A stretch of 64,000 nucleotides of DNA from an uncultured Clostridium sp. (GTDB lineage: Bacteria; Bacillota_I; Bacilli_A; RF39; UBA660): assembly GCA_905199855.1 (NCBI GenBank), contig CAJKHY010000003.1, positions 6,823 to 70,822 on the forward strand. Direction: 5' to 3'. Below, piece after piece: positions 3,369 to 40,548 of this stretch. Position numbers and translations under genes: made by a program. The notes below the pieces were generated by a model. The model saw only the letters and a list, made by a program, of their open reading frames with translations, was not told the DNA's origin and did no database searches. Each line of letters opens with the position of its first letter. The stretch's first letter is position 1.

Positions 3369-3382
3369 TTTTTGTTTTTTTT

Positions 3383-11360: not shown

Positions 11361-13238
11361 TTATTTTTTTTGAATTTTTATTATAAATTGATATTCGTTA
11401 GGTAAATCTAATTCGTCTACATCAACAATGTAACCTGATGCTTCTAAGTTATCTATTAGTTGTCTACTCATATTTAAGGCATTCCTTAAATAGTATGGAG
11501 AATATTCTTGTTTTGCTTGTGGTTGTTCTTCAAACGAAGGTGCCCCCTCTGTATTAAATTCTGGCAAGAATGGTTCTTCAATTTTTGATGGTTGAATGTT
11601 TGGTTGTGTTTCAACTGGAGAGGATACAAAAGTTGGATTATTGTTTTGTAGCGAAGGTTGAGTTGATGCTGTGATGCTTTCTTGAGTTGCAACTGGTTGA
11701 ATATTATTTACTGTTTCTTCTTGGGGTACGAACTGAGGTGTTATATTGTTTGAAATATTCTCTGGAGTTTGTTCAATTTTTTGGTTAGGTTCTAAATTAA
11801 TGTTTGAAATTGTTGGTTCTATTTTTGGTGTTTGAACACTTGGAATGTCATTTGTAGTTGGAGTTTGAATTGTATTTAAGTTAGGTAATGGCATCGTATT
11901 TTCAATAGATGATGTAGGCATTGGGGTAATATTTGATGCCATGGTTTCTGGAGTTGGCATTTCCCAAGTATTTATTGGATTATTTAAGTTTAGTTCTTGG
12001 TAAGATTCTGTAGGAGTTGCAATATTAACTTCTGGATGTGGTGTTTCTTTAGCCCCTTGTATATTTATTTGTTCAGGTTGATTTTGAAAATTATTTGGTA
12101 CTGCAGGTTGTGGTGTTGGTTCTACTAGAGTTGAATTTAATTCCGGCATATTAAATATAGGGGTAGGATTTATAGTTTGTGATGTTACTTCAGGGGTTTG
12201 TTCATTATTTACAGTATCAGGCATGTTTATTCTTTCTATATTAATTGGTTGTGGAGTTTGTGGTTGCATAGGTAAAGGCATTTCGACATTTTTTGCAGGT
12301 TCCATAAAGTTAGAGCCTGTGTTCATGTTTGTGCTTTCATCTTCTAGTGATGTGAAAAATTTGCCTGCGAATGAAAATTTTGGTTTTTCAACAGGTTGTT
12401 CTTGTTTTGGCATACTTTCATCTACTTTTAATAAATTGTTGATATCTGCAGTTTGCTCTTGATGATTTATATCTTGGGCTGATGCTTTAATTGCATCAAT
12501 GTTAATCATTTGTGTTTTATCCATTTTATCCTCCACTATTTCTGGTTCAACATCATCGAACGTATTTGATTTTTTATTTACTATATCAAGTCCTGATAGA
12601 ACTTTTTGCATATTAGGATTAATATCCATTTCCTCTACTTGTTCTTTGTTTTCTTTAATTATATCTTGGACTTGTTTAACTGTTAATCTTTCTTTTTTGA
12701 TTCTTTCTAGCATTGCATTTTCTTCCTGTTCATTTTCTAATTGAAGTAATGCTTTAGCATGTCCTTCGCTAATTTCATTATTTTGTAAAGCTTCTTGGAC
12801 ATTTTTACTTAATTTTAATAGTTTCATTTTGTTATTTATTTCTTTTTCTTCTTTAGACATTAAATTGGCTATTTCTTTAGTGTTACTATTTCCCGCTAGA
12901 TTTTGATAAGCTTTGGCTTCTTCAATTGGAGTAAGACTTTGTCTTTGAAGATTTTCAACGATGGCTAGTTCGGCACTTGCTTGGTCATTTATTTCCATAA
13001 TAATAGCTGGTACTTGGGTTAAACCTACTAAAGAGGCGGCTTTTAATCTTCGTTCACCTGCGATTACTTCATAACCATTAGGTATTTTTCTTAGAATAAG
13101 GGGTTCTATTATCCCATATTTTTTTATAGAGTTTGCCAATTCTTGTAGTGCTTTCTCATCAAATTTAATACGTGGTTGAAAACGGTTAGGTTTTATTTCA
13201 GTAATGTTTATTTGTTTTATTTCATTACTTTGTTGCAT
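11361..13238 (-). CDS. parB: ParB/Spo0J-family partition protein with a long low-complexity insertion
   Basis: ParB N-terminal domain with the IAGERRLKA motif and HTH. Then ~350 aa rich in P/T/N/Q, then a short C-terminal domain. Start set at MQQSNEIK with AAGGAGGG RBS; the ORF track extends to 13313. Confidence 0.75.
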   Translation of the reverse strand: MQQSNEIKQINITEIKPNRFQPRIKFDEKALQELANSIKKYGIIEPLILRKIPNGYEVIAGERRLKAASLVGLTQVPAIIMEINDQASAELAIVENLQRQSLTPIEEAKAYQNLAGNSNTKEIANLMSKEEKEINNKMKLLKLSKNVQEALQNNEISEGHAKALLQLENEQEENAMLERIKKERLTVKQVQDIIKENKEQVEEMDINPNMQKVLSGLDIVNKKSNTFDDVEPEIVEDKMDKTQMINIDAIKASAQDINHQEQTADINNLLKVDESMPKQEQPVEKPKFSFAGKFFTSLEDESTNMNTGSNFMEPAKNVEMPLPMQPQTPQPINIERINMPDTVNNEQTPEVTSQTINPTPIFNMPELNSTLVEPTPQPAVPNNFQNQPEQINIQGAKETPHPEVNIATPTESYQELNLNNPINTWEMPTPETMASNITPMPTSSIENTMPLPNLNTIQTPTTNDIPSVQTPKIEPTISNINLEPNQKIEQTPENISNNITPQFVPQEETVNNIQPVATQESITASTQPSLQNNNPTFVSSPVETQPNIQPSKIEEPFLPEFNTEGAPSFEEQPQAKQEYSPYYLRNALNMSRQLIDNLEASGYIVDVDELDLPNEYQFIIKIQKK

Positions 13239-13371
13239 AAAAAATCCCTCCTTATTCTTTTTTCTTACCCTTATGATATAATAATACACTAAGAAAAGGA
13301 AAAATTCAATCATTTTTTGTCGAAATAATATAAAAAAAATTAGAATTTTATGTTAATCTAACTTTTTTTAT

Positions 13372-14073
13372 TTATAGTGGATTTTTTTTTATTTGACTAT
13401 AGTTTCTAGGATATATATTTTTAGTTGGTTCTAATTTAATTATGTCTAAGAGGGTTCTCTCACTTTCTTCAATAGGTAGTTTAAATTTTTCTATTTTTAT
13501 TATTTTTGATTTCAATTTACTTAATGATGTTTCTATATTATTCAATTCTTTATCAATATTAGATTTCATAGGAATGAAGTGGCCATTTACTTTTAGTAAG
13601 GGAATAGAGTATTCTATAAGTTCTTTTAAATTGGCTACTGCTCTTGATGTTACTATATCATAGGTTTCTCTCACTTTTTTACCATAATCTTCAGCTCTTT
13701 CATTTATAATGGTAATATCTTTTAATTCTAAGGTGTCAATTACTAGTTTTAAGAAGTTACATCTTTTGTTTAGTGGTTCTATTAAAGTTACTTTTAAATT
13801 AGGGAATACTATCTTTAAAACAATTCCTGGGAATCCTGCACCTGTTCCTATATCACATAAGGTTTGATTGTCTAATTTTATTATTTTATTTAAGGTTAAT
13901 GAATCATAGAAATGTTTTAGGTATACTAGATTGTATTCGGTAATACCAGTTAAATTAATTTTTTGATTTTCTGTAATAAGAAGGTTATAGTACATATCTA
14001 ATTGGTTTATTTGGTTTTCTTTTATGTTTATGTCTATTTTTTTTAAGTAATTAATAAATTGTTCTTTATTCAT
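13372..14073 (-). CDS. rsmG: 16S rRNA (guanine527-N7)-methyltransferase RsmG/GidB
   Basis: DIGTGAGFPGI SAM motif; overlaps mnmG. Confidence 0.85.
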   Translation of the reverse strand: MNKEQFINYLKKIDINIKENQINQLDMYYNLLITENQKINLTGITEYNLVYLKHFYDSLTLNKIIKLDNQTLCDIGTGAGFPGIVLKIVFPNLKVTLIEPLNKRCNFLKLVIDTLELKDITIINERAEDYGKKVRETYDIVTSRAVANLKELIEYSIPLLKVNGHFIPMKSNIDKELNNIETSLSKLKSKIIKIEKFKLPIEESERTLLDIIKLEPTKNIYPRNYSQIKKNPL

Positions 14074-17825: not shown

Positions 17826-18902
17826 CTAGTTTTTTCTTTTTTTTAATCTTTTGTTCATGTTATGAAGGGCTACACCGTTCATGATTAAATTACCATGTTT
17901 GTATTCTTGATATTGAAGTCGGTTTGCCTCTTCGATGTCTTCTCCACCAAAGTATAGTATTTTAATACTTTCTTTTAGTTTTTTTAGTTTTTCTAGTCTT
18001 TCTGTTGGTGTACTTCTTACTTCGTCTTTTTTATAGTTATCACATTTTGATACTATAAATTTTTTCATTTCTCCATTTTCTTTTATTTCTTGGATTCCTT
18101 CAGTTATAAAGTCGTAAGAATCTATTCTTGATTTAATACGGTCTTTTATTTTAGGACAAAGTGTTGCTGTAGCATTTTGACAACTAAAGCATAGATGGTT
18201 TTGACTTTTAGTGTAAATTATGTCTATTAAATCTGCAAATATGTTTTGTGATAATTCATAAATTCCATTATTAATGTTATTCGTTTTGGTGTATGAAGCA
18301 AATATTTCATTTATTGGTGTATTTATTTTTTTATTTTCTAATTCTCTTATTGTTCTTTCTGGTAATCTTAATAATAAGTTAGTATAATATGTCATTATCA
18401 TTTCTTTTATCATGATAGATATTGTGGCTTTTTTATTATTTATTAAACTTTTTTCTATATATTTGACATTATTGTTAACTTTGTTTTTTGTTATCTTTTT
18501 TGTAGATGTGTAAAGACTTAATGGAATAAGGTGGTTCTGTTTTAAGATGTCATTTACTATTGTAGATGTGTAAAAACTTAATGGAATAAGGTAGTACTGT
18601 TTTAAGATGTCATTTACTATTTGTAATAGTTCTTCTTCTGTTTTTGCTTCATTTATTTTTTTTATGATGTTACTTGTTTCATTTAATGAACAATGGGCGT
18701 TTAATTCGTTTGTTATTGATTTTGCTTTTCTTATGATTTCACTTTTTTCCTTGCTAGGTAATTTTATGATGTCTTCTTGGCTTAAGATGTTTTCAAAACA
18801 TTTATCTTTTTTAGTAAAATATGGTATGAAATTACTTCTTTTTATTTTTTCTACCTCAGCAATTTGTCCGTTTTCTTTTTTAATTATAATACTTTTTCCC
18901 AT
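17826..18902 (-). CDS. hypothetical protein (ORF-B) with an internal 20-aa tandem duplication and a Cys-rich C-terminal half
   Basis: 358 aa from MGKSIIIKKENGQIAEV. The start is chosen because a perfect sigma-A promoter and GGGGG RBS lie immediately upstream; the track's longer ORF reaches 19037. Contains HLCFSCQNATATLCP…SKCDNY. Confidence 0.5.
   Translation of the reverse strand: MGKSIIIKKENGQIAEVEKIKRSNFIPYFTKKDKCFENILSQEDIIKLPSKEKSEIIRKAKSITNELNAHCSLNETSNIIKKINEAKTEEELLQIVNDILKQYYLIPLSFYTSTIVNDILKQNHLIPLSLYTSTKKITKNKVNNNVKYIEKSLINNKKATISIMIKEMIMTYYTNLLLRLPERTIRELENKKINTPINEIFASYTKTNNINNGIYELSQNIFADLIDIIYTKSQNHLCFSCQNATATLCPKIKDRIKSRIDSYDFITEGIQEIKENGEMKKFIVSKCDNYKKDEVRSTPTERLEKLKKLKESIKILYFGGEDIEEANRLQYQEYKHGNLIMNGVALHNMNKRLKKRKN
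18501..18620. repeat. 2 x 60-bp direct tandem repeat (~95% identity) inside ORF-B, in frame
   Basis: tgtagatgtgtaaagacttaatggaataaggtggttctgttttaagatgtcatttactat repeated; encodes IVNDILKQYYLIPLSFYTST / IVNDILKQNHLIPLSLYTST. Confidence 0.9.
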
Positions 18903-18970
18903 ATAAAATTCCCCCTTTTTTTGAAATATGACTCGTATTATAGCACGTTTGTTTTTGTTTGTCAAGTTTT
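18903..18970 (-). promoter_or_regulatory. Consensus sigma-A promoter plus leader of ORF-B: TTGACA-17-TGcTATAAT, RBS AAGGGGGAA
   Basis: Reverse complement reads CTTGACAAACAAAAACAAACGTGCTATAATACGAGTCATATTTCAAAAAAAGGGGGAATTTTATATG. About 80% identity over 56 nt to the ORF-A promoter/leader. Confidence 0.65.
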
Positions 18971-19021
18971 TTATTCGAGTGGGAGGAGTACTAAAAACAA
19001 TAACAAAAGAAAAAAGAAGAA

Positions 19022-20371
19022 TTATTTTCCTAGACAAAATCTTTTAAACATTTCGTCTAGCATTTCTTCTTTATATGTAGCACCGATTATTTCGCCTAGT
19101 ATGTTCCATGCTTCTTTGATATCTATTTCTAATAGATATGGTTCTATTCCTTGACGTGTTTTATTAATTACTTCTTTTAGAATGTCATGGGCTTTTTTTA
19201 GTAATCCGATGCTTCTTGCACTTGTTAGATAATTCATATCTGTTGTTTCTATTTTATCAATGTTAAATAAGTATTTTATTTTGTTTTTTAAATCATCTAT
19301 TCCTATATTATATTCTGCACTTATTTTAACTATGTTTTCATGGTTAATTTCTTCAATATTGGTAGGTAAGTCTATTTTATTTAAAACAATTATACTTGTT
19401 TTGTTTTTAATTAATTCTAATAAATATTTATCTTCTTCTGTTAATTGTTCATTACTGTTTAAGATAAGTATTATTAGGTTACTATTTTCTATAACTTCTT
19501 TGCTTTTGTTTACTCCAATTTGTTCTACAATATCATTTGTCTCTCTTATTCCTGCAGTATCAATTAGGTGGATAGGAATGTTATCTATTTGGATTGTTCC
19601 TTCGACAATATCTCTTGTTGTTCCTGCAATATTGGTTACTATTGCTTTGTTTTCTTCTAAGAGTGTATTTAGTAAACTGCTTTTTCCAACATTTGGCCTA
19701 CCTATTAGACATACTTTTATTCCTTCGGTTATTATTTTCCCATTTTCGCTTTGAGTTATTGTATCTTCTAGGCTTTTGTTTACTTCTTTTAGAATTGGTA
19801 ATATTTTTTCATTGTTAATAACTTCGATATCATCGTATTCTGGGTAATCAATGTTTACTTCAATATTAGAGATTACTTGAATTAGTTTATCTCTTAGAGA
19901 TATTATCTTATTTGAAACATTACCACTTAATTGGTTGATTGATAGTTTTCTGGATGTTTCTGTTTTGGCTTCGATTAGATTCATGATACCATCGGCCTCG
20001 ATTAGGTCAATTCTTCCATTTAAAAAGGCTCTTTTGGTGAATTCTCCTGGTTCTGCTAGACGAATACCTTTTTGAATAAGTAATTCTAATACTTTATTAG
20101 TTGTGGATATACCTCCATGGCAATTTATTTCGACAATGTCTTCTTTGGTATAGGTTTTAGGACTTTTCATGATGCTTATTAGGACTTCATCTATTATTTC
20201 TTCTTTGTTTACGATATGTCCATAGTGAATGGTATGGGTGTTTACTTTGGTTAAATCTTTTCCTTTAAATATTTCATTTACTAATGGTATTGCATCTTTG
20301 CCACTTACTCTTATGATGGATATAGCTCCAACTCCTAAGGCCGTTGATATACCTGCAATTGTATCATTCAT
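19022..20371 (-). CDS. mnmE: tRNA modification GTPase MnmE/TrmE
   Basis: 449 aa; G-domain GRPNVGKSSLLN, DTAGIRE; C-terminal CLGK motif. Confidence 0.9.
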   Translation of the reverse strand: MNDTIAGISTALGVGAISIIRVSGKDAIPLVNEIFKGKDLTKVNTHTIHYGHIVNKEEIIDEVLISIMKSPKTYTKEDIVEINCHGGISTTNKVLELLIQKGIRLAEPGEFTKRAFLNGRIDLIEADGIMNLIEAKTETSRKLSINQLSGNVSNKIISLRDKLIQVISNIEVNIDYPEYDDIEVINNEKILPILKEVNKSLEDTITQSENGKIITEGIKVCLIGRPNVGKSSLLNTLLEENKAIVTNIAGTTRDIVEGTIQIDNIPIHLIDTAGIRETNDIVEQIGVNKSKEVIENSNLIILILNSNEQLTEEDKYLLELIKNKTSIIVLNKIDLPTNIEEINHENIVKISAEYNIGIDDLKNKIKYLFNIDKIETTDMNYLTSARSIGLLKKAHDILKEVINKTRQGIEPYLLEIDIKEAWNILGEIIGATYKEEMLDEMFKRFCLGK

Positions 20372-24283: not shown

Positions 24284-24599
24284 TATTACACCTCCAAAGT
24301 TCTTTTTTTAATATAAAATGCTATTTTATTATATAGGTGTTTTATTTTAAAGTCAATAAAAATTTTTATTTTGTCTATTTTTTTGTTATGATACAAGTTA
24401 TTTATAGTTGATATTGACATTAGCAAATAATGTCTTTTTTTATTAGAATGTTGTATCCTAAATAAGGTATGTTTCTATTTTTTAACTAAATTTTTCTTGT
24501 GATAACGGCGTAGCAAAGGCATAAGAAAATTAAAATTGGTGTTTTAAAAATTATAGTTTTGGTGTATAATGGTTTTAAGAATAGAATTTGGGTGATTAT

Positions 24600-26366
24600 A
24601 TGTTTAAGAGGATACTTGCTATTAGTAAGAATTATGCTTTTGTAGAGATAGATAATTTAATGAGTGAAGATTTGCTTAATTATTATGTTATTTTTGTCGA
24701 TGATGATAAGAAGTTTCTTGGCGAGGTTAATGAGGTAGATGGTAATAGGGTTAAGATTACTTTTTTAGGCGAATTTATTAATGATAAGTTTGTTAGTGGT
24801 ATTATTAGAAAACCTAGTTTGACTTCTAATATTAGAATTATTAACAATATTGAGCTCGATGAGTTAATGGGGACTGTTAATGATAAGAATATGGTTCTTG
24901 GTTTATCTCCTTTATATAATGATCATCCAATTAATATAGATATTAATAGTATGTTTAGTAACCATAGTTCAATATTTGGTAACACAGGAAGTGGTAAAAC
25001 ATATGGGGTTGCTAGAATTTATCAGTCTTTGTTTGATAGAAATGATATTATTCCTTTTAATGCTAATATTTTTATATTTAATTCAACTAATGAGTATCAT
25101 AATTCTTTTTCTTCTATTAATAAGTTTAATATTAATTATAATTATAAGATGTATACGACTAATACTAATAATAAGGATAGTTTAATTATTAAGTTGCCTC
25201 TTTGGCATTTAACTGTTGATGATTATGCTAATTTACTTGATGTTTACGAATATTCACAGATTAATATTATAGAGAAGATGTTATCCTATGTATGTGCTTT
25301 TGCTAAGAATGATGAGTATTCAATAAGATATAAGAATCATTTGATAGCTTCTGCAATTATATCAGTTATGTATACGAATCAAACGGCTTTTAGGATAAGG
25401 GATCAAATATTTAATATTCTTAGTACTTGCAGTACAAAAGATTTAAATTTGGATTATGAAATTCCTGGTGTTGGATATACTAGAACTTTTAGAAAATGTT
25501 TTGATATTGATAGTCAAGGAGAATTTGTTGAGCGATTACTTGTTTCTAAATATGTGGAACAGTTTGTTGATAATAATACGAAATGGAATGAAGATTATAC
25601 TCCCATTTATTATACTTTAGAGGATTTAGAGATAGCTTTAAACTTTACTTTGATTAGTGAAGGATTACTTTTAAATGAAAAATATTATGCGGAGGCGATT
25701 GCTTTAAAAGTAAAGTTGCATTCTATTATTAATAGTTCTTATCATAAATTTTTTGATTATAATAGATTTGTTAGTTTGACTGAGTTTATTACTGATATCG
25801 TGGTTAATAAAGAAAATAAAAGATGTCAAATAATTAATTTTGTCTTAGAAGATGTGGATGATAGATTTGCTAAGGCTTTAACTAAGATTTATTCAAGATT
25901 ATTTTTTAAGTTTGCTAGAAGTTTGCCTCAGCGTGGGACATTTCCTATGCATATTTTATTGGAAGAAGCCCACAGATATGTGCAAAACGATGCAGATACT
26001 AGGACTTTAGGTTATAATATTTTTGAGAGAATTGCTAAGGAAGGTAGAAAATATGGGGTAATTTTAGATTTGGTTACTCAAAGGCCTACGGAATTATCCG
26101 AATCAGTTATTTCTCAGTGTAGTAACTTTTTGATTTTTAAGATTAATCACCCAACTGATTTAGATTATATTGGTAAAATGGTTCCTAATATTACGGATGA
26201 TATAATTGAAAAGCAAAAAAGTTTGCAGTCTGGGATATGCGTAGCGTTTGGCAAGATGATGAAGTTACCTATGATAGTTAAGATGAAACTTCCTAATCCT
26301 CCTCCTAGCTCCGCGAATGCTGATGTATATGATAAATGGATGTTTAATTTAAAAGGTAGATATTAA
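24600..26366 (+). CDS. HerA/DUF87-family ATPase (HAS-barrel + RecA-like hexameric ATPase), standalone
   Basis: Walker A GNTGSGKTYG; Walker B/catalytic ILLEEAHRY; HerA-type C-terminal block GRKYGVILDLVTQRPTELSESVISQCSNFLIFKINHPTDLDYI; ~125-aa N-terminal barrel-like region. Confidence 0.7.
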   Translation: MFKRILAISKNYAFVEIDNLMSEDLLNYYVIFVDDDKKFLGEVNEVDGNRVKITFLGEFINDKFVSGIIRKPSLTSNIRIINNIELDELMGTVNDKNMVLGLSPLYNDHPINIDINSMFSNHSSIFGNTGSGKTYGVARIYQSLFDRNDIIPFNANIFIFNSTNEYHNSFSSINKFNINYNYKMYTTNTNNKDSLIIKLPLWHLTVDDYANLLDVYEYSQINIIEKMLSYVCAFAKNDEYSIRYKNHLIASAIISVMYTNQTAFRIRDQIFNILSTCSTKDLNLDYEIPGVGYTRTFRKCFDIDSQGEFVERLLVSKYVEQFVDNNTKWNEDYTPIYYTLEDLEIALNFTLISEGLLLNEKYYAEAIALKVKLHSIINSSYHKFFDYNRFVSLTEFITDIVVNKENKRCQIINFVLEDVDDRFAKALTKIYSRLFFKFARSLPQRGTFPMHILLEEAHRYVQNDADTRTLGYNIFERIAKEGRKYGVILDLVTQRPTELSESVISQCSNFLIFKINHPTDLDYIGKMVPNITDDIIEKQKSLQSGICVAFGKMMKLPMIVKMKLPNPPPSSANADVYDKWMFNLKGRY

Positions 26367-26389: not shown

Positions 26390-26735
26390 ATGAAAAAAGA
26401 GTTATCCACAGTAAAATGTGGAATAAATTTTCTATTTGTTGTCTAATTGTGTAAAAATTTGACACATTTTTGGTACTAAATACAAGAAAAAAGAAAAGTT
26501 ATCCACATAACGAATAAGTTATCCACATGTGAGGATGGGTGTTGATAATAATATACACATAAAATTTTTTTTGTGTAAATTTGTGGAAAAAAGAAGAAAT
26601 CCTTATAAAATATATAAAATATAAGTGGAATTTTGTGTGGAAAAACTGAGGATAGTTAGTATTTTTTAAAAAAATTCTTTTCATTTTCCACATTATAGTG
26701 TAAAATATAGATAGAAATCCAAAAAATAAGGAGTA
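26390..26735. promoter_or_regulatory. oriC upstream DnaA-box cluster and dnaA promoter region
   Basis: Perfect TTATCCACA boxes at 26404, 26507 and 26525. Near-consensus boxes TGTGGAAtA, TGTGGAAAA (x2) and TTTTCCACA. TTGACA promoter at 26459. Confidence 0.85.
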
Positions 26736-26741
26736 ATGGTT

Positions 26742-28094
26742 ATGGATACATTAGTAATTTGGAATAGTTTTTTAGAAAAAATTAAAGAACAGGTTTCTTC
26801 TTTATCTTACGAAACTTGGTTTAAGGATACGAAATTAGTTAGTTTAGATAATAATACCGCGACTGTTATTGTCCCTATGAACTTACATAAGAAGCATTTA
26901 AAAGAAAATTATATTTCTTTAATGGAAGATATTTTTAATAGTATTACGGGTACTAATTTTACTTTTTCTTTCTTACTTGAAGAAGAATACGAGACAGAAA
27001 CTGTAGTAGAAGATGTGGATGTTGGAGTACCTAAGTATCATAGGGAAGATGCTAATTTAAAACCAAATTACACTTTTGAATCATTTATTATTGGTGAAAG
27101 CAATAAGTTTGCTTATACTGCTGCGATGTCGGTAGCAGAAAAACCTGGAAAAGCTTATAATCCTTTATTTTTGTATGGTAAAAGTGGTTTAGGTAAAACA
27201 CACTTAATGCATGCAATAGGTAATTATATTATAAATAATACTAATTTAAAGGTTTTATATGTTACTAGTGATGATTTTGTTAACGATTTTATTAGAGTAG
27301 TACGCAACAAGGATAAGGAAAATTTTGAATTAATTAATACTTTTAAGGCAAAATATAGAAATGTGGATGTTTTAATGATTGATGATATTCAGTTTTTAGA
27401 AAATGCGGCTGCTACACAGCAAGAATTTTTTCACACATTTAATGAGTTATATAATTCTAATAGGCAAATCATCATTTCTTCCGATAGATCGGTTAATGAT
27501 TTAAAGTTACTTGAGGATAGACTTAGGACACGTTTTGCTTGTGGACTTACTGCAAATATTTTTCCACCCGATCTGAAATTAAGCAAGGATATTATAAAGA
27601 AAAAGATAATGTATCAAGAATCAGCCAAAGACATACCAGAAGATGTAATTGATTATATTGCTAATAGTTTTAGTACTGATGTTAGGTCATTAGAAGGGGC
27701 TATTACTAGGGTATTTGCTTATTCTTTAATGATGGGGCATGGGGAAATTACTTTAGACATTGCAGTTGATGCTTTAAAAGATCAAATGATTAAATCTTGT
27801 AATTTTAAGAATGATATACATCGTATTCAAATGGTGGTAAGTGATTATTTCCACATAAAAGTGGAAGATTTAAAGGGAAAGAAAAGGTCTAAGTCGATTG
27901 CTTTTCCTAGACAGATAGCAATTTACCTGTGTAGAACTTTAACTAATGAGTCTTTCCCTAGAATAGGTGGTTATTTTGGTGGAAGAGACCATTCAACAAT
28001 AATGCATTCTTATGATAAAATAAGTGTGGATATGAAAAATAATGAACAAGTTAAAGAAATAATAAAAGATATTAAAAAAACTTTATCTAATTAA
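26742..28094 (+). CDS. dnaA: chromosomal replication initiator DnaA
   Basis: AAA+ Walker A LFLYGKSGLGKTHL, box VII, C-terminal DNA-binding domain; start at the second ATG (8-nt spacing to AAGGAG). Confidence 0.95.
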   Translation: MDTLVIWNSFLEKIKEQVSSLSYETWFKDTKLVSLDNNTATVIVPMNLHKKHLKENYISLMEDIFNSITGTNFTFSFLLEEEYETETVVEDVDVGVPKYHREDANLKPNYTFESFIIGESNKFAYTAAMSVAEKPGKAYNPLFLYGKSGLGKTHLMHAIGNYIINNTNLKVLYVTSDDFVNDFIRVVRNKDKENFELINTFKAKYRNVDVLMIDDIQFLENAAATQQEFFHTFNELYNSNRQIIISSDRSVNDLKLLEDRLRTRFACGLTANIFPPDLKLSKDIIKKKIMYQESAKDIPEDVIDYIANSFSTDVRSLEGAITRVFAYSLMMGHGEITLDIAVDALKDQMIKSCNFKNDIHRIQMVVSDYFHIKVEDLKGKKRSKSIAFPRQIAIYLCRTLTNESFPRIGGYFGGRDHSTIMHSYDKISVDMKNNEQVKEIIKDIKKTLSN

Positions 28095-28226
28095 CTTGTG
28101 TAAAGTTATTTGACATTATGCACAAGAAAAAATGTTAAAAACACTTATAAAATAAGAGATAGTAAAGTTATCCACAGTTATCCACAATATAATCATTAAT
28201 AAAAAAATAAAGAAAGAAGGTATATT
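28095..28226. promoter_or_regulatory. oriC downstream part: two tandem DnaA boxes plus an AT-rich putative unwinding region between dnaA and dnaN
   Basis: TTATCCACAgTTATCCACA at 28168-28186, preceded by ~70 bp of >80% AT. Confidence 0.8.
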
Positions 28227-29366: not shown

Positions 29367-29393
29367 TTTGGTTTTTTTCGACAAAATTCGACA
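29367..29393. promoter_or_regulatory. three direct repeats TTCGACAAAA/TTCGACAAAA/TTCGACAATA at 10-bp phasing; each contains the reverse complement of the Spo0A box TGTCGAA
   Basis: Seen directly at 29367-73, 29377-83 and 29387-93; ~70 bp upstream of the comK-like start, right after the dnaN terminator hairpin. Confidence 0.5.
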
Positions 29394-29462
29394 AAATTCG
29401 ACAATATGTGTGTGTTAAAGTACAAGCCATATATATTTATATATATGTTTGGAGGTGATATA

Positions 29463-29930
29463 ATGGATTATTTTATTACGCAAGAGACATTACTTATTAT
29501 GCCAATTACGAAAACACAGACTAAGATATTAGAAAATGATAATGTCATGTTTGTTGATTCTAAAACATTCAAAATTGTAAATGATAATTGTAAGTTATAT
29601 GGAAGTACTTATTTGAATAGAGTAGAGTTTAGTAAAACAATACTTAAGTGTAGATGCAAAATGCCTATAATTTTAGATAATGATGGAAATATAATACTTT
29701 TTCCAACAACTTCTAAGCGTCAAGAACATTGTGCATGGTTAAATTATAATAATATTAAGTCTTATAAAGAACAGGGTTCAAAAAACGTAGTTGTTACCTT
29801 TTTAAATGGTATTAAGATTGTTATTAATATGTCATATTATACATTTGAGCACCAAATAAATAAATGTCATAGATTAAAATTGGATTATTTGGAAAAAAAA
29901 GTTTCAATTGTATACAAAAATGCCAGATAA
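29463..29930 (+). CDS. comK: ComK-family competence transcription factor-like protein
   Basis: Blocks IILFPTTSKRQEHCAWL and VVVTFLNGIKIVINMSYYTFEHQI align with B. subtilis ComK IFLFPTLSSTRPQCGWI and TEVTFSNGKTMELPISYNSFENQV; GGAGGTG RBS. Confidence 0.65.
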   Translation: MDYFITQETLLIMPITKTQTKILENDNVMFVDSKTFKIVNDNCKLYGSTYLNRVEFSKTILKCRCKMPIILDNDGNIILFPTTSKRQEHCAWLNYNNIKSYKEQGSKNVVVTFLNGIKIVINMSYYTFEHQINKCHRLKLDYLEKKVSIVYKNAR

Positions 29931-30033: not shown

Positions 30034-33077
<3,044 letters not shown>

Positions 33078-33089
33078 GAGGTGTAGAAA

Positions 33090-35684
33090 ATGGATAATGA
33101 TAATAATTTAAACGAACTATTGAATATGGCAATGAATGACAATGATGTGGATAACAAAGAGGTAGATAATAATACGGATGTTGAGAATGTTGATGATGAG
33201 ATGGTAAATACTGATTTTGGTGGAACATTTCATGAACATGATAGTTTAACTGAGAATAATATAGTTGATGAGGTAAGCAAGAGTTTTTTACAATATTCTA
33301 TGAGTGTTATTACTTCAAGAGCATTGCCTGATTTGCGTGATGGATTAAAGCCTGTTCATAGGAGAATTTTGTGGAGTATGTTTTGTTCAGGTTATACTCC
33401 AGATAAACCTCATAGAAAATCAGCAAAGACTGTTGGTGAGGTTATGGGTAATTACCATCCACATGGTGATTCTTCAATATATGAAGCAATGGTAAGAATG
33501 GCTCAAGATTTTAATGAGCGATATTTACTTATTGATGGACATGGTAATTTTGGTAATATTGAGGGTGATGGCGCGGCGGCAATGCGTTATACTGAATCAA
33601 GGTTATCTAAACTTTCACTAGAATTGCTTAGGGATATTAAGAAAAACACAGTTGATATGACTAAGAATTTCGACGAATCTTTGGATGAGCCAACGGTATT
33701 GCCTAGTAGGTTTCCAAATATTTTAGTTAATGGAACAATGGGTATCGCGGTAGGTATGGCCACAAATATTCCTCCTCATAATTTATGTGAGGTAATTGAT
33801 GGTTGTATAGCATATATAGATAATCCTGATATTGATACTTTAGGTTTAATGCAATATATTAAGGGGCCTGATTTTCCAACTGGTGGTATTATTTTAGGAA
33901 ATTCTGGTATTCGTAAGGCTTATGAAACTGGTCGTGGTTCTATTACGATTCGTAGTAAAGCTATAATTGAGGAAGGTACTAATCATAGTAATATAATTAT
34001 TACTGAGGTTCCATATGGTGTTAATACAATGGAGCTAAAGAATAAGGTGGCAGAATTGGTTAGGGATAAGGTAATTGAAGGTATTTCTGATTATCATACT
34101 GATTTGAAGGATGGTGTGAAGATTACAATTACTTTGAAGCGTGATGCTAATCCTCAAGTTATTTTAAATAATTTATATAAGCATACTAATTTGCAGGTAC
34201 AATATGGAATTATTTTCTTAATGATAGATAATAAGACACCAAGAACTTTAGGGTTAAAGGATATTATTGCTAAATATATTGATCATCAAAAAGAAGTTAT
34301 TATAAGGCGTACAAATTTCGATTTGGAAAAAGATGAGAAGCGTGTGCATATTTTAGAGGGGTATAAGATAGCTCAAGATAATATTGATGAGGTTATTAAT
34401 ATAATTAAGACTGCTAAAACAGATATTATTGCTAAGGAAAAGTTAATGTCAAGGTTTGGGCTTACTGATATTCAATCTGATGCTATTTTGGAATTGAAGT
34501 TACGTCGTTTAACTGGTCTAGAAAGAGATAAAATTGAGACTGAGTTAAGGGATTTGTTGCTTGAAATTGAAGATTTACGTTCTATTTTGGCTTCAAATGA
34601 AAAGATTCTTAATATTATTAAGGAAGAGCTGTTGGAGGTTAAGTCTAAATATGGTGATGAGAGAAGAACTAAAATTGATATGACCGCAATTGATTACATT
34701 GATGATGAGTCTTTGATACCTGAAGAGAATATTGTTGTTACTTTGACAGGAAAAGGTTATATTAAGAGATTACCTGTGGATACTTATAAAACGCAAAATC
34801 GTGGTGGTGTAGGTATTAAGGGTATGAGTACGAATGACGAAGATTATGTGGAAAACATGATTGAAGCTAGTTCTCATGATTATATATTATTCTTTACTAA
34901 TAATGGTAAGGTTTATCGTATTAAGGGTTATGAGATACCAGAGTATAGTAGGCAGTCAAAGGGGTTACCAATTATTAATTTGTTAAATTTAGAGAAAAAC
35001 GAAAAGGTTGCTGCTTTAATTAGGATTGCTAATGACGATGAGAGTAATAATTTAGTTTTTGCTACAAAGAGTGGTTTAATTAAGAGGACTGCAATTAGTG
35101 AATTTAATAATATTAGAAATAATGGTAAAAAATTTATTACTTTGCGCGATGATGATGAGTTAATATCTGTTGAAAAGACTACTGGCGATAACGATATATT
35201 AATGGCTTCTTCTAATGGTAGAATGGTTCGTTTTAATGAGAATTCTATTAGAGTTATGGGTCGCGGAGCTGCAGGAGTAAGAGGTATTAATTTAGAAGGT
35301 GGATTTTTGGTTGGTATGTCTAAGGCTGTGGATAATCAACAAGTATTGGTTGTTACTGAAAGGGGTTATGGTAAAAAAACTGATATTAGTGAGTATCGCA
35401 TTACTAATCGTGGTGGTAAAGGTGTTAAGACTTTAAATATTACTGATAAGAATGGATCAATTGTAGCATTTAAAACAGTAAATTGTAATAGTGATTTAAT
35501 GATTATTACTAATGAGGGTATTGTGATTAGATTAGATATAGATAAGATTTCTACTATGAGTCGTGTAACTCAGGGTGTAAAGCTTATAAATCTTAGGGAA
35601 AATCAATGTGTATCTTCAATAGCTGTTGTTGATAAGATAATTGAGGATGATTCTAATGTTGATGATGAAGTTACAAATAATTAG
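33090..35684 (+). CDS. gyrA: DNA gyrase subunit A
   Basis: Active-site region [11 protein letters not shown]; QRDR-like segment [15 protein letters not shown]; C-terminal beta-pinwheel repeats. Confidence 0.95.
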
Positions 35685-35864
35685 TAACTTCTTTTTTTAG
35701 AAGAAATGTTTGTGTTTTTTTACAAAATGTATTTTATTTATTACAAAAATTGTGGATAACTCATATTTATTAAACCAAATTAGGGATATTATTTAGTTAA
35801 ATAAATGTGGAAAGAATAATTTTGTTATTAAATGAGTGATTATATAGTAGCCTTATTAAGAATA

Positions 35865-36010
35865 ATGTTTCACGTGAAACATAGTATAATCTCAATAAAA
35901 TATATAGAGTTAGTATTATAATTAATGTTTCACGTGAAACATAGTATAACCTCAATAAAATATATAGCGTTAATATTAAAATTAATGTTCCACGTGAAAC
36001 ATAGGGCGTA
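35865..36010. repeat. 2.4 copies of a 60-bp tandem repeat, each carrying the 18-bp perfect palindrome ATGTTTCACGTGAAACAT followed by TAGTATAAT
   Basis: Palindromes at 35865-82, 35925-42 and 35985-36002 (third has 1 mismatch); the units differ at only a few positions. Confidence 0.9.
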
Positions 36011-36142
36011 GTTAAAATTAATTATATGGACATATATAGGATAAAAACTAAAAGAGAATATTAATATTTTTGTGTGGATAAATTTTTATTTTTTTTATAT
36101 AAATGCTTGATTTATTTTTATAATTAATGTATATTATTTATT

Positions 36143-36224
36143 GATGCAACAATAATGTTGAAAATGAGTCAGGATCGGGAGATAGCAGCTATAACAACCT
36201 CTTATTGTGTGCATCTTTTTTTTT
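36143..36224 (+). ncRNA. ffs: small signal recognition particle RNA (4.5S/scRNA-type)
   Basis: GUCAGGAUCGGGAGAUAGCAGC matches SRP domain IV consensus GUCAGGUCCGGAAGGAAGCAGC, with a compensatory pair and GNRA tetraloop. Long imperfect hairpin GAUGCAACAAUAA…UUAUUGUGUGCAUC followed by a T9 terminator. TTGATT-17-TATATT promoter upstream. Confidence 0.75.
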
Positions 36225-36348
36225 GTAGTAATGTAGATAAGTGTTTTTTACATATTAATGAACAAATGTTTTCTATAAAAAAATATTGACATAGTATATA
36301 CTTTTTGATATACTATAAAGTTATATAGATAGTAGTGGGTGGTAAGTT

Positions 36349-36777
36349 GTGGATAACTATTATATGAACTTAGCTATTAAGATGGCAAGGTTTGCTTATA
36401 TGAGAAATGAAGTTCCTGTTGGCGCGGTTGTTATTAATTGTGATAATAATATGGTTACAAAGGGGTATAATCAAAAAAATTCTTCTAAATTGGTTACTAA
36501 GCATGCTGAGATAATAGCAATTGAACGAATGTGTAAAAAAATTGGTGATTGGCGTTTAAGTAATTGCGTTTTATATGTAACATTAGAACCTTGTTTGATG
36601 TGTATTGGTGCAATAATTGAATCACGTATTAAAAAAGTAGTTATAGGATGTAATAATAGTCATAATCGAGATTTAATTGACATATTGAAAAAAAATAAGA
36701 TTGAGGTTGTGGAAAATGTTTTGAGTAATGAATGTTGTATGATTTTAAAAGACTTTTTTAAAGCAAAAAGAAAATAA
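36349..36777 (+). CDS. tadA: tRNA-specific adenosine deaminase TadA (CDA fold)
   Basis: HAEIIAIE…TLEPCLMCIGAI zinc-binding motifs; position upstream of dnaX as in B. subtilis. Confidence 0.8.
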   Translation: MDNYYMNLAIKMARFAYMRNEVPVGAVVINCDNNMVTKGYNQKNSSKLVTKHAEIIAIERMCKKIGDWRLSNCVLYVTLEPCLMCIGAIIESRIKKVVIGCNNSHNRDLIDILKKNKIEVVENVLSNECCMILKDFFKAKRK

Positions 36778-36822
36778 TCTTCATTTTTGTGTTATAATTA
36801 ATTTGATTGGAGGTTTGATAGT

Positions 36823-38520
36823 TTGAAATATTTAGCTTTATATCGTAAATATAGACCTTCTAGGTTTGAGGAAATATCTGGACAAGAAGGTGTAGTTGGT
36901 GTTTTAAAGAATGCTATTAAAACTGGACGTATTTCTCATGCTTATTTGTTTTGCGGTCCACGTGGAACAGGTAAAACTACTACGGCAAAGTTACTTGCTA
37001 AGATGGTTAATTGTACTAATCCAATTGATGGAGAACCTTGTGGAAAATGCGAAAGTTGTTTGAGTATATTTAATAATACTAATGATGATATTATTGAGAT
37101 TGATGCTGCTTCTAATAATGGTGTAGATGAAATTAGAGAGTTGAGAGATAAAATTAATTTAGTTCCATCTAATTCAAAATATAAGGTTTATATTATTGAT
37201 GAAGTACATATGCTTACTGTTGGAGCCTTTAATGCCTTGCTTAAAACCTTGGAAGAACCACCTAGCCATGTAATCTTTGTTCTTGCTACTACTGAGACTT
37301 ATAAGGTTCCACTTACAATTTCTTCTAGATGCCAAAAATTTAGATTTGATAAAATAACTGTGGATAACATAGTAAAAAGGCTTGAAGAAATTTGTAATAT
37401 TGAAAAAATAGTTGTTTCTAGTGATATTTTGAATGAAATAGCGCGTTTGGCAGATGGTGGGATGAGGGATGCTATTAATTTATTAGATCAGCTTGTTAGT
37501 TATAAGGGCAATGATATAACTATAAATGATGTTTATGATATTACAGGTCTTGTTTCTTATGAAATAATCTATGAATTGTTGTTAAGCAGTTATAATAAAG
37601 ATATGTCATCAATAGTTAAAATATTAGATGATATTAATTATAGTGGGAAAAATATTTCTAAATTTATTGAAGAAATTATATTGTTTTTAAAAGATGTACT
37701 TGTTTATAAGAATATTACTGATTATTCTTTAAATTTGGATAAACTTAACAAAGTTAAAGAAATTAGTGATTTGTATGATAATAATTTAATTTATAATTAT
37801 GTTAATGAATTAAATAATGTACTTAATAATATTAAAAATTCCAGTTATCCCTTGCTTCTTTTAGAAGTTGCTTTGATAAAATTAGTTAATTTAGAAAAAA
37901 AAGAAGAATCTATTTTAGAAAAAGTCAATGTCAAGGAAAGTAAAAATAATGTAAAAGCAGAGAAAAATACTAGTAATATGTCTATAAAAAATGATATAAT
38001 TAAAGAAGATGTTTTTCCTAAATTATCTAATGAAGAATTGAAGCATATCAGTTATTTAAAAGAAGTTAGGGTAAACAATGCTTTTGTAAGTGCAAATAAA
38101 AGTTTGCTTAACAAATTTAAAGAAAAATGGTCCCTTGTATTTGAATATTTGACAAATGATAAGTATGAGAATATTGTAGGATTACTTAAGGATGTTAATG
38201 TTGTTGTGGCAGGAAAAGAGAATTTAATATTTCAGTCAAAGTTTTCTTCAGTAGCGGCATCTTTGAATAGTCAAAGTGAATTATTAAGTGAATTATTTTA
38301 TGAAATATATGGTGTTAATTATAAAACTATTGTACTTAGTAACAGCGAATGGGATTATGAGAAAAAAAAGTATATTGATAATTTGAATAATAAATATGTA
38401 TATGAAATGAAGGTGGAAAAAACTAAGGGACAGAATGATATTAAGTATGAAAAAAGTAGTAATTTAGGTGCAAATGATTTAGTAGATATATTAGGGGCAG
38501 AGGTTATTGAATATAAGTAA
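36823..38520 (+). CDS. dnaX: DNA polymerase III subunit tau/gamma
   Basis: TTG start with GGAGG RBS; Walker A GPRGTGKTT; Zn module CGKCESC; SRC motif. Confidence 0.9.
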   Translation: MKYLALYRKYRPSRFEEISGQEGVVGVLKNAIKTGRISHAYLFCGPRGTGKTTTAKLLAKMVNCTNPIDGEPCGKCESCLSIFNNTNDDIIEIDAASNNGVDEIRELRDKINLVPSNSKYKVYIIDEVHMLTVGAFNALLKTLEEPPSHVIFVLATTETYKVPLTISSRCQKFRFDKITVDNIVKRLEEICNIEKIVVSSDILNEIARLADGGMRDAINLLDQLVSYKGNDITINDVYDITGLVSYEIIYELLLSSYNKDMSSIVKILDDINYSGKNISKFIEEIILFLKDVLVYKNITDYSLNLDKLNKVKEISDLYDNNLIYNYVNELNNVLNNIKNSSYPLLLLEVALIKLVNLEKKEESILEKVNVKESKNNVKAEKNTSNMSIKNDIIKEDVFPKLSNEELKHISYLKEVRVNNAFVSANKSLLNKFKEKWSLVFEYLTNDKYENIVGLLKDVNVVVAGKENLIFQSKFSSVAASLNSQSELLSELFYEIYGVNYKTIVLSNSEWDYEKKKYIDNLNNKYVYEMKVEKTKGQNDIKYEKSSNLGANDLVDILGAEVIEYK

Positions 38521-38542
38521 TTAAAGAAAGGAAGATGTTATT

Positions 38543-38839
38543 ATGAATATGCAAGCAATTATGAGACAAGCTCAACAAATGCAAAGTGAAATTATGAAAA
38601 TACAAAAGGAGTTAGAAAAAACAGAATACGAAGGAAATTCTTCGCTGGTTACAGTTGTTTTGAACGGAAAAAAGGAAATGTTAAAGTTAACTATTAAAGA
38701 TAAAGAAAATTTAAACAGTGATGATATGGATATATTAGAGGATATGGTAGTTGTGGCTTTTAATGAGGCTATGAAAAAAGTAGATGTTGACAAAGAAAAA
38801 AAGTTAAGTAAATATCAAGGGTTAGCAGGTATGATGTAA
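38543..38839 (+). CDS. ybaB: nucleoid-associated protein YbaB/EbfC
   Basis: 98 aa; dnaX-ybaB-recR synteny; typical N-terminal MNMQAIMRQAQQMQ. Confidence 0.85.
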   Translation: MNMQAIMRQAQQMQSEIMKIQKELEKTEYEGNSSLVTVVLNGKKEMLKLTIKDKENLNSDDMDILEDMVVVAFNEAMKKVDVDKEKKLSKYQGLAGMM

Positions 38840-38840
38840 G

Positions 38841-39437
38841 ATGTATCCTAAAAATATTAAAGATTTAATGGAATGTTTTGAGTTATTACCTGGTATTGGT
38901 GAGAAAACAGCAGAAAGGTTAAGCTTTTCTTTGATTAATTTTGATAAGGATAAATTAACTGAGTTTGCTGATTCAATTATTGGTATTAGAGATAATATTA
39001 AAAATTGTAAGATATGTAACAATATAACTGATAAAGATATATGTTATATATGTGAAAATAGAAATCGGAAAAATGGGACGATTTTTGTTGTGGAAAATCC
39101 TAAAGATGTTATTTTGTTTGAAAAATTGGGTATTTATAAAGGTGAATATCATGTATTGGGTGGTTTAATTTCACCGCTTGACGGAATAAATCCTGAGGAT
39201 ATTAGTGTAGATAATTTAATTGAGAGAATTAAGAATGGAAAATATACGGAAATTATTGTGGCTTTGAAACCTAGTGTTGAAGGTGAAACGACAGTGCAAT
39301 ATATTAAAAAAATGCTTGAAGGATATGATATTAAAGTTAGTAAAATTGCTAGTGGAGTACCAATTGGTGCTGAGATAGAGTATATTGATCCTATGACTTT
39401 AGAAATGGCTTTGGAAGAGAGAAAATATTTATCATAA
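38841..39437 (+). CDS. recR: recombination protein RecR
   Basis: HhH N-terminus; C4 zinc finger CKICNNITDKDICYIC; Toprim. Confidence 0.9.
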   Translation: MYPKNIKDLMECFELLPGIGEKTAERLSFSLINFDKDKLTEFADSIIGIRDNIKNCKICNNITDKDICYICENRNRKNGTIFVVENPKDVILFEKLGIYKGEYHVLGGLISPLDGINPEDISVDNLIERIKNGKYTEIIVALKPSVEGETTVQYIKKMLEGYDIKVSKIASGVPIGAEIEYIDPMTLEMALEERKYLS

Positions 39438-39476
39438 TAGTAAGAAAGTAACATAGTATTTACTGGGTGAATTATT

Positions 39477-39665
39477 ATGTTAAAAAAAATATTTAAATTA
39501 GTTAAAAAGATTGTTGTATCTGGTTTGGTAATATATGCTTATAATGTGTTGGCTACTCCTATAAATGCGACAATTCCAATTAATTTTATAACACTTTTTA
39601 CAGTGGCAATATTAGGTATGCCATGTTTAGCAGGTTTTATAATTTTGATGCTTATTTTTTATTAA
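39477..39665 (+). CDS. small membrane protein, BofA-like (pro-sigma-K processing inhibitor) by position and shape
   Basis: 62 aa, two TM helices, …ILGMPCLAGFIILML C-terminus; follows recR as bofA does in B. subtilis. Confidence 0.4.
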   Translation: MLKKIFKLVKKIVVSGLVIYAYNVLATPINATIPINFITLFTVAILGMPCLAGFIILMLIFY

Positions 39666-39678
39666 AGATGGTGATTTT

Positions 39679-40548
39679 ATGTTGGATGATTACAAAGATG
39701 GACAAGTTATATTTTATAATGTACTTAGTATGGCAATAAAAAACAATAAAATATCACATGCTTATTTGTTTGAAAATAAAGGAAATGATAAATATATAGA
39801 AATCATTTTATCATTTGTTAAGGCTATTTTGTGTCCAAATAATTATTTTAATAACGAAAAATGTGGAGAATGTTTGCAATGCTTGAGAATTGAAAATGGT
39901 AATTATCCTGAAATAAAAATTATTAAACCTGAAGGAATGTGGATAAAAAAAGAACAATTAATGGATTTGCAAGAAGCATTTAATAAAACAGCAATTGAAG
40001 GTAGTAAAAGAATATATATAATTTTGGAATGCGAAAAATTAAATAAGCAGGCAGCTAATTCAATTTTAAAATTTTTAGAGGAACCAAATGATGATATTAT
40101 TGCTTTATTAGTTACAAATAATAAGGATTTAGTATTAGATACTATTAAATCTAGGTGTCAAGATATATTGATCTTAGCTGATAATGAAGTTAATTTTGAC
40201 TCGTTGATGATTAATGATGTTCTAGATTTTATTAGAGTATTAGAAAATAAGAAAAAAGATACTATTATATATGCTAAACCTTTATGGCTTACTAAATTTA
40301 AGGATAGAAATAGTTTTATAAAAGCCATAGATATTATGATATATTTTTATAATGATGTTTTACTTTTTAAATTAGGTTGTGATTTAAAATATTTTAATAA
40401 TTATTATGATGATGTTACTAATATTAATGGTTCTATTGATGAGATTATAAAAAAAATAAAAATTTTGATAGAAAATGAATATTTAATTAGGTACAATTTA
40501 AATTTGAATTTACTTATTAATAAAATAATTATAGAATTTGGAGGTTAA
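39679..40548 (+). CDS. holB: DNA polymerase III delta-prime subunit
   Basis: 289 aa; degenerate AAA+ with a Zn-module-like CGECLQC. Confidence 0.75.
   Translation: MLDDYKDGQVIFYNVLSMAIKNNKISHAYLFENKGNDKYIEIILSFVKAILCPNNYFNNEKCGECLQCLRIENGNYPEIKIIKPEGMWIKKEQLMDLQEAFNKTAIEGSKRIYIILECEKLNKQAANSILKFLEEPNDDIIALLVTNNKDLVLDTIKSRCQDILILADNEVNFDSLMINDVLDFIRVLENKKKDTIIYAKPLWLTKFKDRNSFIKAIDIMIYFYNDVLLFKLGCDLKYFNNYYDDVTNINGSIDEIIKKIKILIENEYLIRYNLNLNLLINKIIIEFGG

Follow-up and report, generated by a model that had tools for sequence, protein, structure and literature searches.

The window, by which we mean the whole 64-kb stretch of DNA that was analysed, carries just downstream of gyrA a 60-bp unit built around a short palindrome and repeated head to tail, and the locus raises two questions: whether this repeat is a chromosomal centromere of the parS type and, if it is, which protein reads it. 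An initial annotation of the stretch had taken the 18-bp palindrome at 35865–35882 as a close match to the Firmicute parS consensus, the repeat as three such sites spaced 60 bp apart between gyrA and ffs, and the ParB homolog encoded at 11361–13238 as the protein that binds them and so nucleates the partition complex.

The segment 35865–35882 reads ATGTTTCACGTGAAACAT and encloses the first of three 16-mers, all of which fit the Firmicute consensus TGTTNCACGTGAAACA without a mismatch. Copy 1 (35866–35881) and copy 2 (35926–35941, 60 bp further on) are both TGTTTCACGTGAAACA, exact matches to the consensus, and copy 3 (35986–36001) is TGTTCCACGTGAAACA, which departs only at the degenerate N of TGTTNCACGTGAAACA. 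Tandem Repeats Finder delimits the 60-bp tandem array at 35854–36004, with 2.5 copies and 91% matches, and each unit comprises the 16-bp parS and a 44-bp AT-rich spacer; no strand is assigned to the array or to its copies. Both the resemblance to the parS consensus and the exact 60-bp spacing were thus borne out, as was the placement between gyrA and ffs by the Pfam and Rfam assignments of these flanking genes. Chance would supply 0.02 sites per window for the parS 16-mer at up to two mismatches, and three or more sites arose in 0 of 100 shuffles. The mismatch-tolerant search for the 16-mer that the initial annotation had proposed was run on the 64 kb and on the 10-kb extensions that conspecific contigs provide on either side (~84 kb in all), and it left the array as the sole parS locus, since no further 16-mer was found in the window, even at up to three mismatches, and none in the extensions.

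The surroundings are those of a Firmicute-type origin region. The oriC region (26402–28186, no strand assigned) consists of DnaA-box clusters flanking dnaA (26736–28094) on both sides; rightward from dnaA the order is dnaN, a comK-like gene, recF, gyrB, gyrA, the array, ffs, tadA, dnaX, ybaB and recR, and the minus strand carries rnpA, yidC, jag, mnmE, mnmG and rsmG. G+C content is ~27% across the window, and GC skew is strongly positive from ~24 kb onward. The array is flanked on the left by gyrA (33090–35684, plus strand; Pfam DNA_topoisoIV and DNA_gyraseA_C) and on the right by ffs, encoding the small SRP RNA (36133–36230, plus strand; identified by Rfam RF00169 at 50.4 bits, above the gathering score of 40). 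The next protein-coding gene is tadA, for a tRNA adenosine deaminase (36364–36777, plus strand; Pfam deaminase domains), whose 137-aa gene call is also present in conspecific contigs. The array is origin-proximal, lying 7.7 kb from the DnaA boxes between dnaA and dnaN (28168–28186) and ~9.4 kb from the cluster upstream of dnaA (26402–26527).

Several other features of this region deserve mention in their own right. Perfect DnaA boxes (TTATCCACA) number 14 in the window against 0.93 expected, with five at oriC, and eight share a minus-strand orientation over the 9 kb to the right of oriC (31283–39946). Three of them bracket the parS array, at 35751–35759 (minus strand, 107 bp upstream of parS copy 1), 36073–36081 (minus strand, 72 bp downstream of copy 3) and 36348–36356 (minus strand, just upstream of tadA); the gyrA–tadA gap of the sister species L011 also contains three, and any such box occurs there in just 12 of 66 related loci. 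The ComK-family gene (29406–29930, plus strand) is placed between dnaN and recF, which is unusual for comK but conserved lineage-wide (L001–L003, L099, L101 and L102). Between rnpA and dnaA, and adjoining the left DnaA-box cluster on its upstream side, lies a HerA/DUF87 ATPase gene (24588–26366, plus strand). With the anti-phage HerA model its score is 138 bits, which falls far short of the model cut-off, and a near-origin HerA/DUF87 gene is present in some relatives as well (L102 and L104). A second 60-bp tandem repeat (18500–18621; two copies, 95% matches) lies inside an unannotated ORF (17826–19037), and its sequence is unrelated to the parS unit.

How stable the array is can be seen from ten metagenome contigs that were retrieved by an exact match to the YbaB protein of the window and that are 99.3–100% identical to it at the DNA level. 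In the gyrA–tadA gap, L010 has six copies of the site and L002 has eight, L001 and L003 have at least six with runs of N interrupting them, and the contigs L005, L006 and L008 start inside the array. Therefore, the copy number is variable between strains, collapsed in assembly, or both, and the three copies in the window are probably a minimum, because near-identical contigs have 6–8 or more and because assemblies break inside the array. In a sister species that is ~89–90% identical (L011, labelled Clostridium sp. CAG:762; L106 and L108), there are 7–11 copies with a 61-bp period, and the spacer is homologous to that of the window but diverged. The count of three given by the initial annotation is thus correct for the window but overstated beyond it, as the species spans 3 to at least 8 copies and the sister species reaches 11. 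Among the distinct units found within the species, the 16-mer varies at its degenerate position 5 alone, as against 11 of the 44 spacer columns; a Fisher test of this difference as a sign of selection gave p = 0.05–0.15, which is weak by itself and suggestive only.

The position of the sites is kept far beyond the species. A GyrA-based scan with one genome per species gave 80 loci (1.48 Mb), in which parS was counted at up to one mismatch; all 80 are from uncultured gut Bacilli, under the labels Bacilli, Erysipelotrichaceae, Tenericutes, Clostridium sp. CAG:302 or CAG:1193, and Ca. Scybalousia. At least one parS lies between gyrA and tadA in 66 of the 80 loci, at least two in 57 and at least four in 35, so that clusters are common at the homologous position, a point on which the initial annotation had asked whether relatives carry single or arrayed sites. 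This one gap holds 263 of the 323 parS-type sites in the 1.48 Mb, and most of those inspected among the remaining 60 fall just past tadA/dnaX. Spacing among species runs from 33 to ~590 bp, and both the spacers and the spacing diverge while the 16-mer stays constant, which argues for a protein-binding DNA site that is under selection at a fixed chromosomal address. The tight packing, which had been called atypical, turned out to be less exceptional than claimed: the minimum spacing is 70 bp or less in 12 of the 80 related species, and dense clusters have been described before. The parS island downstream of gyrA is the older feature, and the tandem form with its 60- or 61-bp period is an elaboration of it at the level of the genus. 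A minority of loci (L030, L031, L033, L038, L043, L044 and L049) has no parS downstream of gyrA; these are mostly rabbit-gut MAGs with 70–74% GyrA identity.

Two readings other than a centromere were considered for the palindromes. As RNA, the array folds strongly (−40.7 kcal/mol, z = −5.95), as would suit palindromes that act in a structured transcript, as a terminator or processing signal for gyrA or ffs, or as an array of small RNAs. However, such a fold is the trivial result of adjacent palindromes pairing with each other; no Rfam family matches (the best E is 0.19, and gathering scores are not approached), a terminator-like T-run is lacking, promoter-like matches are not above those in shuffled sequence, and relatives conserve the 16-mer alone, which suits a protein-binding DNA site. 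On these grounds the RNA, terminator or promoter reading was rejected as highly improbable. The repetition of the entire 60-bp unit, beyond the palindrome, could also be that of a generic interspersed or mobile repeat, or the palindromes could be the operator of an unrelated CACGTG-binding regulator, the match to parS being coincidental. Against this stand the confinement of the 16-mer to the array within the 64 kb and its 10-kb extensions, the concentration of the sites of the wider lineage in a single intergenic gap, the exact match over 16 bp with variation only at the known degenerate position, and the fact that no transposase or integrase was found nearby. This reading was likewise rejected, for lack of dispersed copies in the 64 kb and its extensions and in view of the fixed gap and the exact consensus, and we give it hardly any credence.

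Taken together, we put the probability at roughly 85% that the repeats form a genuine array of parS loading sites, or centromere, and the sole one in the origin region, because the consensus match is exact, the position is at the origin, the sites are conserved in the near-identical contigs, the sister species and the 80 loci, and the pattern of variation suits selection on the 16-mer. The array would accordingly be the expected nucleation site of the partition complex, as had been proposed, given its canonical palindromes, its status as the only parS near oriC and the position kept in relatives.

The second question, who reads the array, leads to the gene at 11361–13238 (minus strand), which encodes a 625-aa ParB-family protein with ParB_N and HTH_ParB domains (Pfam E-values of 1e-30 and 1e-23) and is the candidate reader. 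Its coordinates in the initial annotation are right, with AAGGAGGG placed 7 nt upstream of the ATG at 13238, a ribosome-binding site that fixes the start. Immediately upstream lies rsmG (gidB; 13372–14073, minus strand; Pfam GidB), a place next to rsmG that noc occupies in Bacillus. In the ~84 kb around oriC formed by the window and its conspecific extensions, this is the sole ParB-family gene, and neither the scanned ORFs of the window nor its two 10-kb extensions yielded a ParA-type gene. The CTP motifs FQPR, GERR and ENLQR are intact, and the ISEGHAKAL segment matches that of canonical ParBs with R173 and G201 (R..G; residue numbers and classes are explained below). Between the HTH domain and a short Noc-like C-terminal domain lies a disordered linker of ~370 residues, 61% of which are P, Q, N, T, S or E, and a tether this long would leave a ParB-type clamp with a much larger compartment for holding DNA. 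The best NCBIfam match is nucleoid_noc (TIGR04285), at 232 bits for the protein as encoded, rising to 237 bits once the linker is taken out; the alignment runs end to end, although the Noc cut-off of 315 bits is not reached. As the Noc model aligns from residue 6 and PNRFQPR begins at residue 17, the protein has no N-terminal extension, and both a ParA-activating N-terminal peptide and the N-terminal amphipathic membrane-targeting helix of Noc type are absent from it.

Four positions distinguish the specificities of the two protein types: in Caulobacter numbering, residues 173, 179, 184 and 201 are R-T-A-G in ParB and Q-K-K-R in Noc, and R173 was invariant in every parS-binding variant of a deep mutational scan (PMC7383237). 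In an ungapped alignment to Spo0J and Noc structures and in a 121-sequence alignment, the 625-aa protein has E173, K179, K184 and G201 (E-K-K-G). It therefore lacks R173, the residue that contacts the first base of the parS core, with a further E at 172, and it lacks the Q173 and R201 of Noc type, K179 and K184 being present. Within the clade of the protein the N-terminal half of the recognition helix varies (EEKE, EENI, EQNV, QENV, DEQQ), and parS is constant. As for the Noc-binding sequence, NBS (ATTTCCCGGGAAAT), none was found in the window at up to two mismatches, two matches at three mismatches are at chance level, and the 10-kb extensions contain none. The promoters of the ParB-like gene in the window's clade contain neither parS nor NBS half-sites.

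A different element was noted in front of this gene. One copy of TTCGACAAAA (13315–13324) lies just upstream of its −35 element, and 2.8 tandem copies with 10-bp phasing occur at 29377–29404, between dnaN and the comK-like gene; the window has three exact copies against 0.14 expected. TTCGACAAAA contains TTCGACA, which on the opposite strand reads TGTCGAA, the core of the Spo0A box. The copy in front of the ParB-like gene is retained in L091 and L095 and, in part, in L096.

The slot of the gene is conserved in all loci examined, with rsmG followed by the ParB-family gene and then a class A PBP gene (uvrB in one locus), and soj/spo0J never stand beside the rsmG-linked gene in these loci. When the best 120 homologues were classed by residues 173 and 201, 65 were Q..R, the Noc type, and 37 were R..G, canonical ParBs without the C-terminus of Noc type. 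A further 17 were x..G with a long linker or a Noc-type C-terminus, residue 173 being E (the window's clade), Q, K, I, V or, once, R (P0057), and one was K..R with a Noc-type C-terminus (P0018). Among these 120, the recognition helix is canonical in every R..G homologue lacking the Noc-type C-terminus; all three of those named by source, and one cluster member in addition, bear a Patescibacteria/CPR label. Cluster membership of ten homologues (eight R..G, P0057 and P0022) gave Patescibacteria as the single informative label. Orthologues from the same locus include R173/G201 and K173/G201 forms. The lengths of the orthologues range from ~365 to 654 aa, and islands within the linker are conserved across them (INPNMQKxL... 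and FSFAGKFFxSLEDExxNMN).

Some orthologues depart from the CTP motifs. In P0005 and P0007 (loci L091 and L096), GQRR replaces GERR, the E of which we take to be the glutamate of CTP hydrolysis. The L115 orthologue (1–232; the first ~76 residues only) has FQSH and GNRR, which are degenerate motifs, and its locus still has three parS-type sites, of which two carry a single mismatch. Judging by these motifs, the GQRR orthologues and that of L115 may be natural hydrolysis-deficient or decaying clamps.

NBS are frequent elsewhere in the lineage. The 80 loci contain 105 perfect copies of ATTTCCCGGGAAAT, 50 of which lie inside the gyrA gap, in 31 species. Often a parS lies 26–27 bp away, and this offset recurs in many related species whose gyrA–tadA gaps alternate perfect NBS with parS (L048, L054, L059, L067, L073, L076 and L085); in L048, for example, such pairs are at 3376/3402, 3893/3919 and 4428/4455. 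We know of no earlier description of such composite NBS–parS modules. The hybrid sites ATTTCACGTGAAAT and GTTTCCCGGGAAAC were also searched for, with none in the window and one copy in L075.

Protein type and sites could be paired in a few genomes. The window genome, with E-K-K-G, has parS only and no NBS, and perfect NBS are absent from its species and from the sister species. L102 and L103, with Q-K-S-R proteins, have a perfect NBS and half-sites in the promoter of the gene itself and parS after gyrA; L125, with Q-K-N-R, has five parS and two NBS in its island, and was the sole new usable protein–site pair in a DnaA-centred metagenome scan. Noc would be expected to go with NBS, and NBS do accompany the Q..R proteins in all three genomes paired in this way; the single E..G genome has none. 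In contrast, parS persists in these few pairs whatever the form of the rsmG-linked protein. In the promoter of the Q-K-S-R orthologue of L102 (9834–10000), one perfect NBS was counted together with four or more ATTTCCC/GGGAAAT half-sites, an arrangement that suggests autoregulation; these half-sites have been lost in the window's clade.

Since Q..R genomes with NBS still keep parS, either a second reader of parS exists somewhere in the lineage or the rsmG-linked proteins have an unexpected dual specificity. The persistence of parS would then be due either to a canonical ParB encoded far from the origin or to unconventional reading by the rsmG-linked proteins. On the former account, a canonical Spo0J/ParB with R173 and G201, encoded away from the origin, would read the parS centromere, and the local protein would have another task, for instance DNA binding that is non-specific or directed to different sites, or would be a decaying Noc. 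The two glutamates at 172 and 173 and the poorly conserved start of the recognition helix in the local protein fit this well, as does the invariance of R173 for parS binding (PMC7383237). So do the parS clusters that persist in the three Q..R genomes alongside NBS located in the gyrA gap or the promoter of the gene itself, as well as the parS sites that L115 retains next to degenerate CTP motifs. However, a tblastn search with the ParB N-domain turned up no second ParB-family gene when it covered 10 kb to each side of gyrA in 90 loci and the same distance around the rsmG-linked gene in 15, in line with the ~84 kb covered here; parAB genes are usually origin-proximal (PMC3899335); and, among the best 120 homologues, the labels of the named R..G proteins without Noc-type C-terminus point to Patescibacteria/CPR. 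An unlinked ParB is for us a tentative alternative, to be taken seriously but with the odds against it.

The assignment of the array to the protein at 11361–13238 in the initial annotation holds in so far as the sites are canonical parS and the gene is the only nearby one of the ParB family, but the protein is no more than a candidate binder, given E173, a best match to the Noc model that stays below its cut-off, and the lack of a ParA partner or ParA-activating peptide. We would give this candidate an almost even chance of being the reader, and we slightly favour the local Noc-derived E173 protein over an unlinked canonical ParB. A broader proposal seems rather unlikely to us, though it is worth stating: the lineage would have no canonical ParAB at all, and a single rsmG-linked CTPase derived from Noc would read the array, with E, K, Q or R at 173 together with G201, a disordered tether of ~370 residues, and neither a ParA-activating nor a membrane-targeting N-terminus. 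If this were true, a Noc descendant would have had its specificity reverted or broadened back towards parS, Q..R relatives would run mixed islands with NBS and parS ~26 bp apart, and the strain-variable array would be a natural experiment in the tuning of parS copy number.

Whichever protein is the reader, established ParB biology suggests how the array may work. Dimers of a ParB-family CTPase would bind each 16-bp palindrome, and CTP binding would close them into clamps that slide onto the flanking DNA (PMC7053999, PMC7333895). Several adjacent loading sites would raise the local loading rate, and the resulting ParB–DNA complex, ~8 kb from oriC, would mark the origin as the part to be segregated and probably also as a place where SMC is loaded. 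The system would work without ParA, and ParA-less ParB–parS systems are known from Streptococcus pneumoniae and Staphylococcus aureus (PMC7333895). The array itself might grow and shrink as its 60-bp units slip or recombine unequally, with selection keeping the 16-mer.

Elements of this design have counterparts in well-studied systems. The sites share the 16-bp consensus (TGTTNCACGTGAAACA, bound by Spo0J/ParB), the origin-proximal position and, presumably, CTP-dependent clamp nucleation with parS of Bacillus subtilis and other Firmicutes. In B. subtilis, parS sites are dispersed over the origin domain and spo0J–soj adjoin noc, whereas here they form head-to-tail 60-bp units in one intergenic gap, with no soj/spo0J nearby and a sole ParB-family protein that lacks R173. 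A dense single-locus cluster of many chromosomal parS near the origin is also found in Myxococcus xanthus, which has 22 parS in ~3 kb upstream of parAB (PMC3899335). In contrast to the present case, M. xanthus has canonical, essential ParA and ParB ~4 kb away, and the array here, which comes without a ParA, has fewer copies (between 3 and at least 8, or as many as 11 in the sister species), is shorter, has an exact 60-bp period and varies in copy number between strains. The architecture is that of sopC of the F plasmid, with 12 tandem 43-bp repeats, each containing a 16-bp inverted repeat bound by SopB (PMC3597684), in that both are head-to-tail direct repeats with one 16-bp palindromic ParB-family site each. 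However, sopC is a plasmid centromere of different sequence with its own SopA and SopB, whereas the present array is chromosomal and consists of the universal chromosomal parS; rather than standing beside its own parA/parB, as in plasmids, it lies in the chromosomal order dnaA–dnaN–recF–gyrB–gyrA ... ffs–tadA–dnaX.

The pairing of a ParB-family protein and parS without ParA, presumably in the service of SMC loading and origin organization, resembles S. pneumoniae and S. aureus. The ParBs of these species are canonical proteins of ordinary length, whereas the protein here is Noc-like, with E173 and a linker of ~370 residues. With the Noc–NBS system (PMC7383237, PMC8429893) the protein shares the end-to-end alignment of its linker-less form with the Noc model and the place next to rsmG, and relatives carry perfect NBS, but the window has no NBS, positions 173 and 201 are E and G instead of Q and R, and the score is below the cut-off. 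The membrane-targeting helix of Noc is carried in an N-terminal extension (PMC8429893).

Dense chromosomal parS clusters and plasmid tandem centromeres were already known, and the array is an element of an ordinary kind. What goes beyond the routine is its lineage-wide address after gyrA, the variation of copy number at strain level and the mismatch between parS and the local protein. The array would locate the centromere of an uncultured lineage of gut Bacilli with small genomes, relatives of which are labelled Clostridium sp. CAG:762, CAG:302, CAG:1193 and Ca. Scybalousia, and an island of parS sites placed right after gyrA characterizes this lineage as a whole. For metagenome assembly it is useful to know that the tandem repeat breaks short-read assemblies at this point. 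The field lists the reasons for variation in parS number and for clustering as an open question (PMC7333895), and the variation in copy number between strains that are 99.3–100% identical bears on why parS number varies and on what drives clustering. The more interesting lead is the contrast between a canonical, conserved parS and a sole nearby ParB-family protein without the residue that is thought to be required for reading it.
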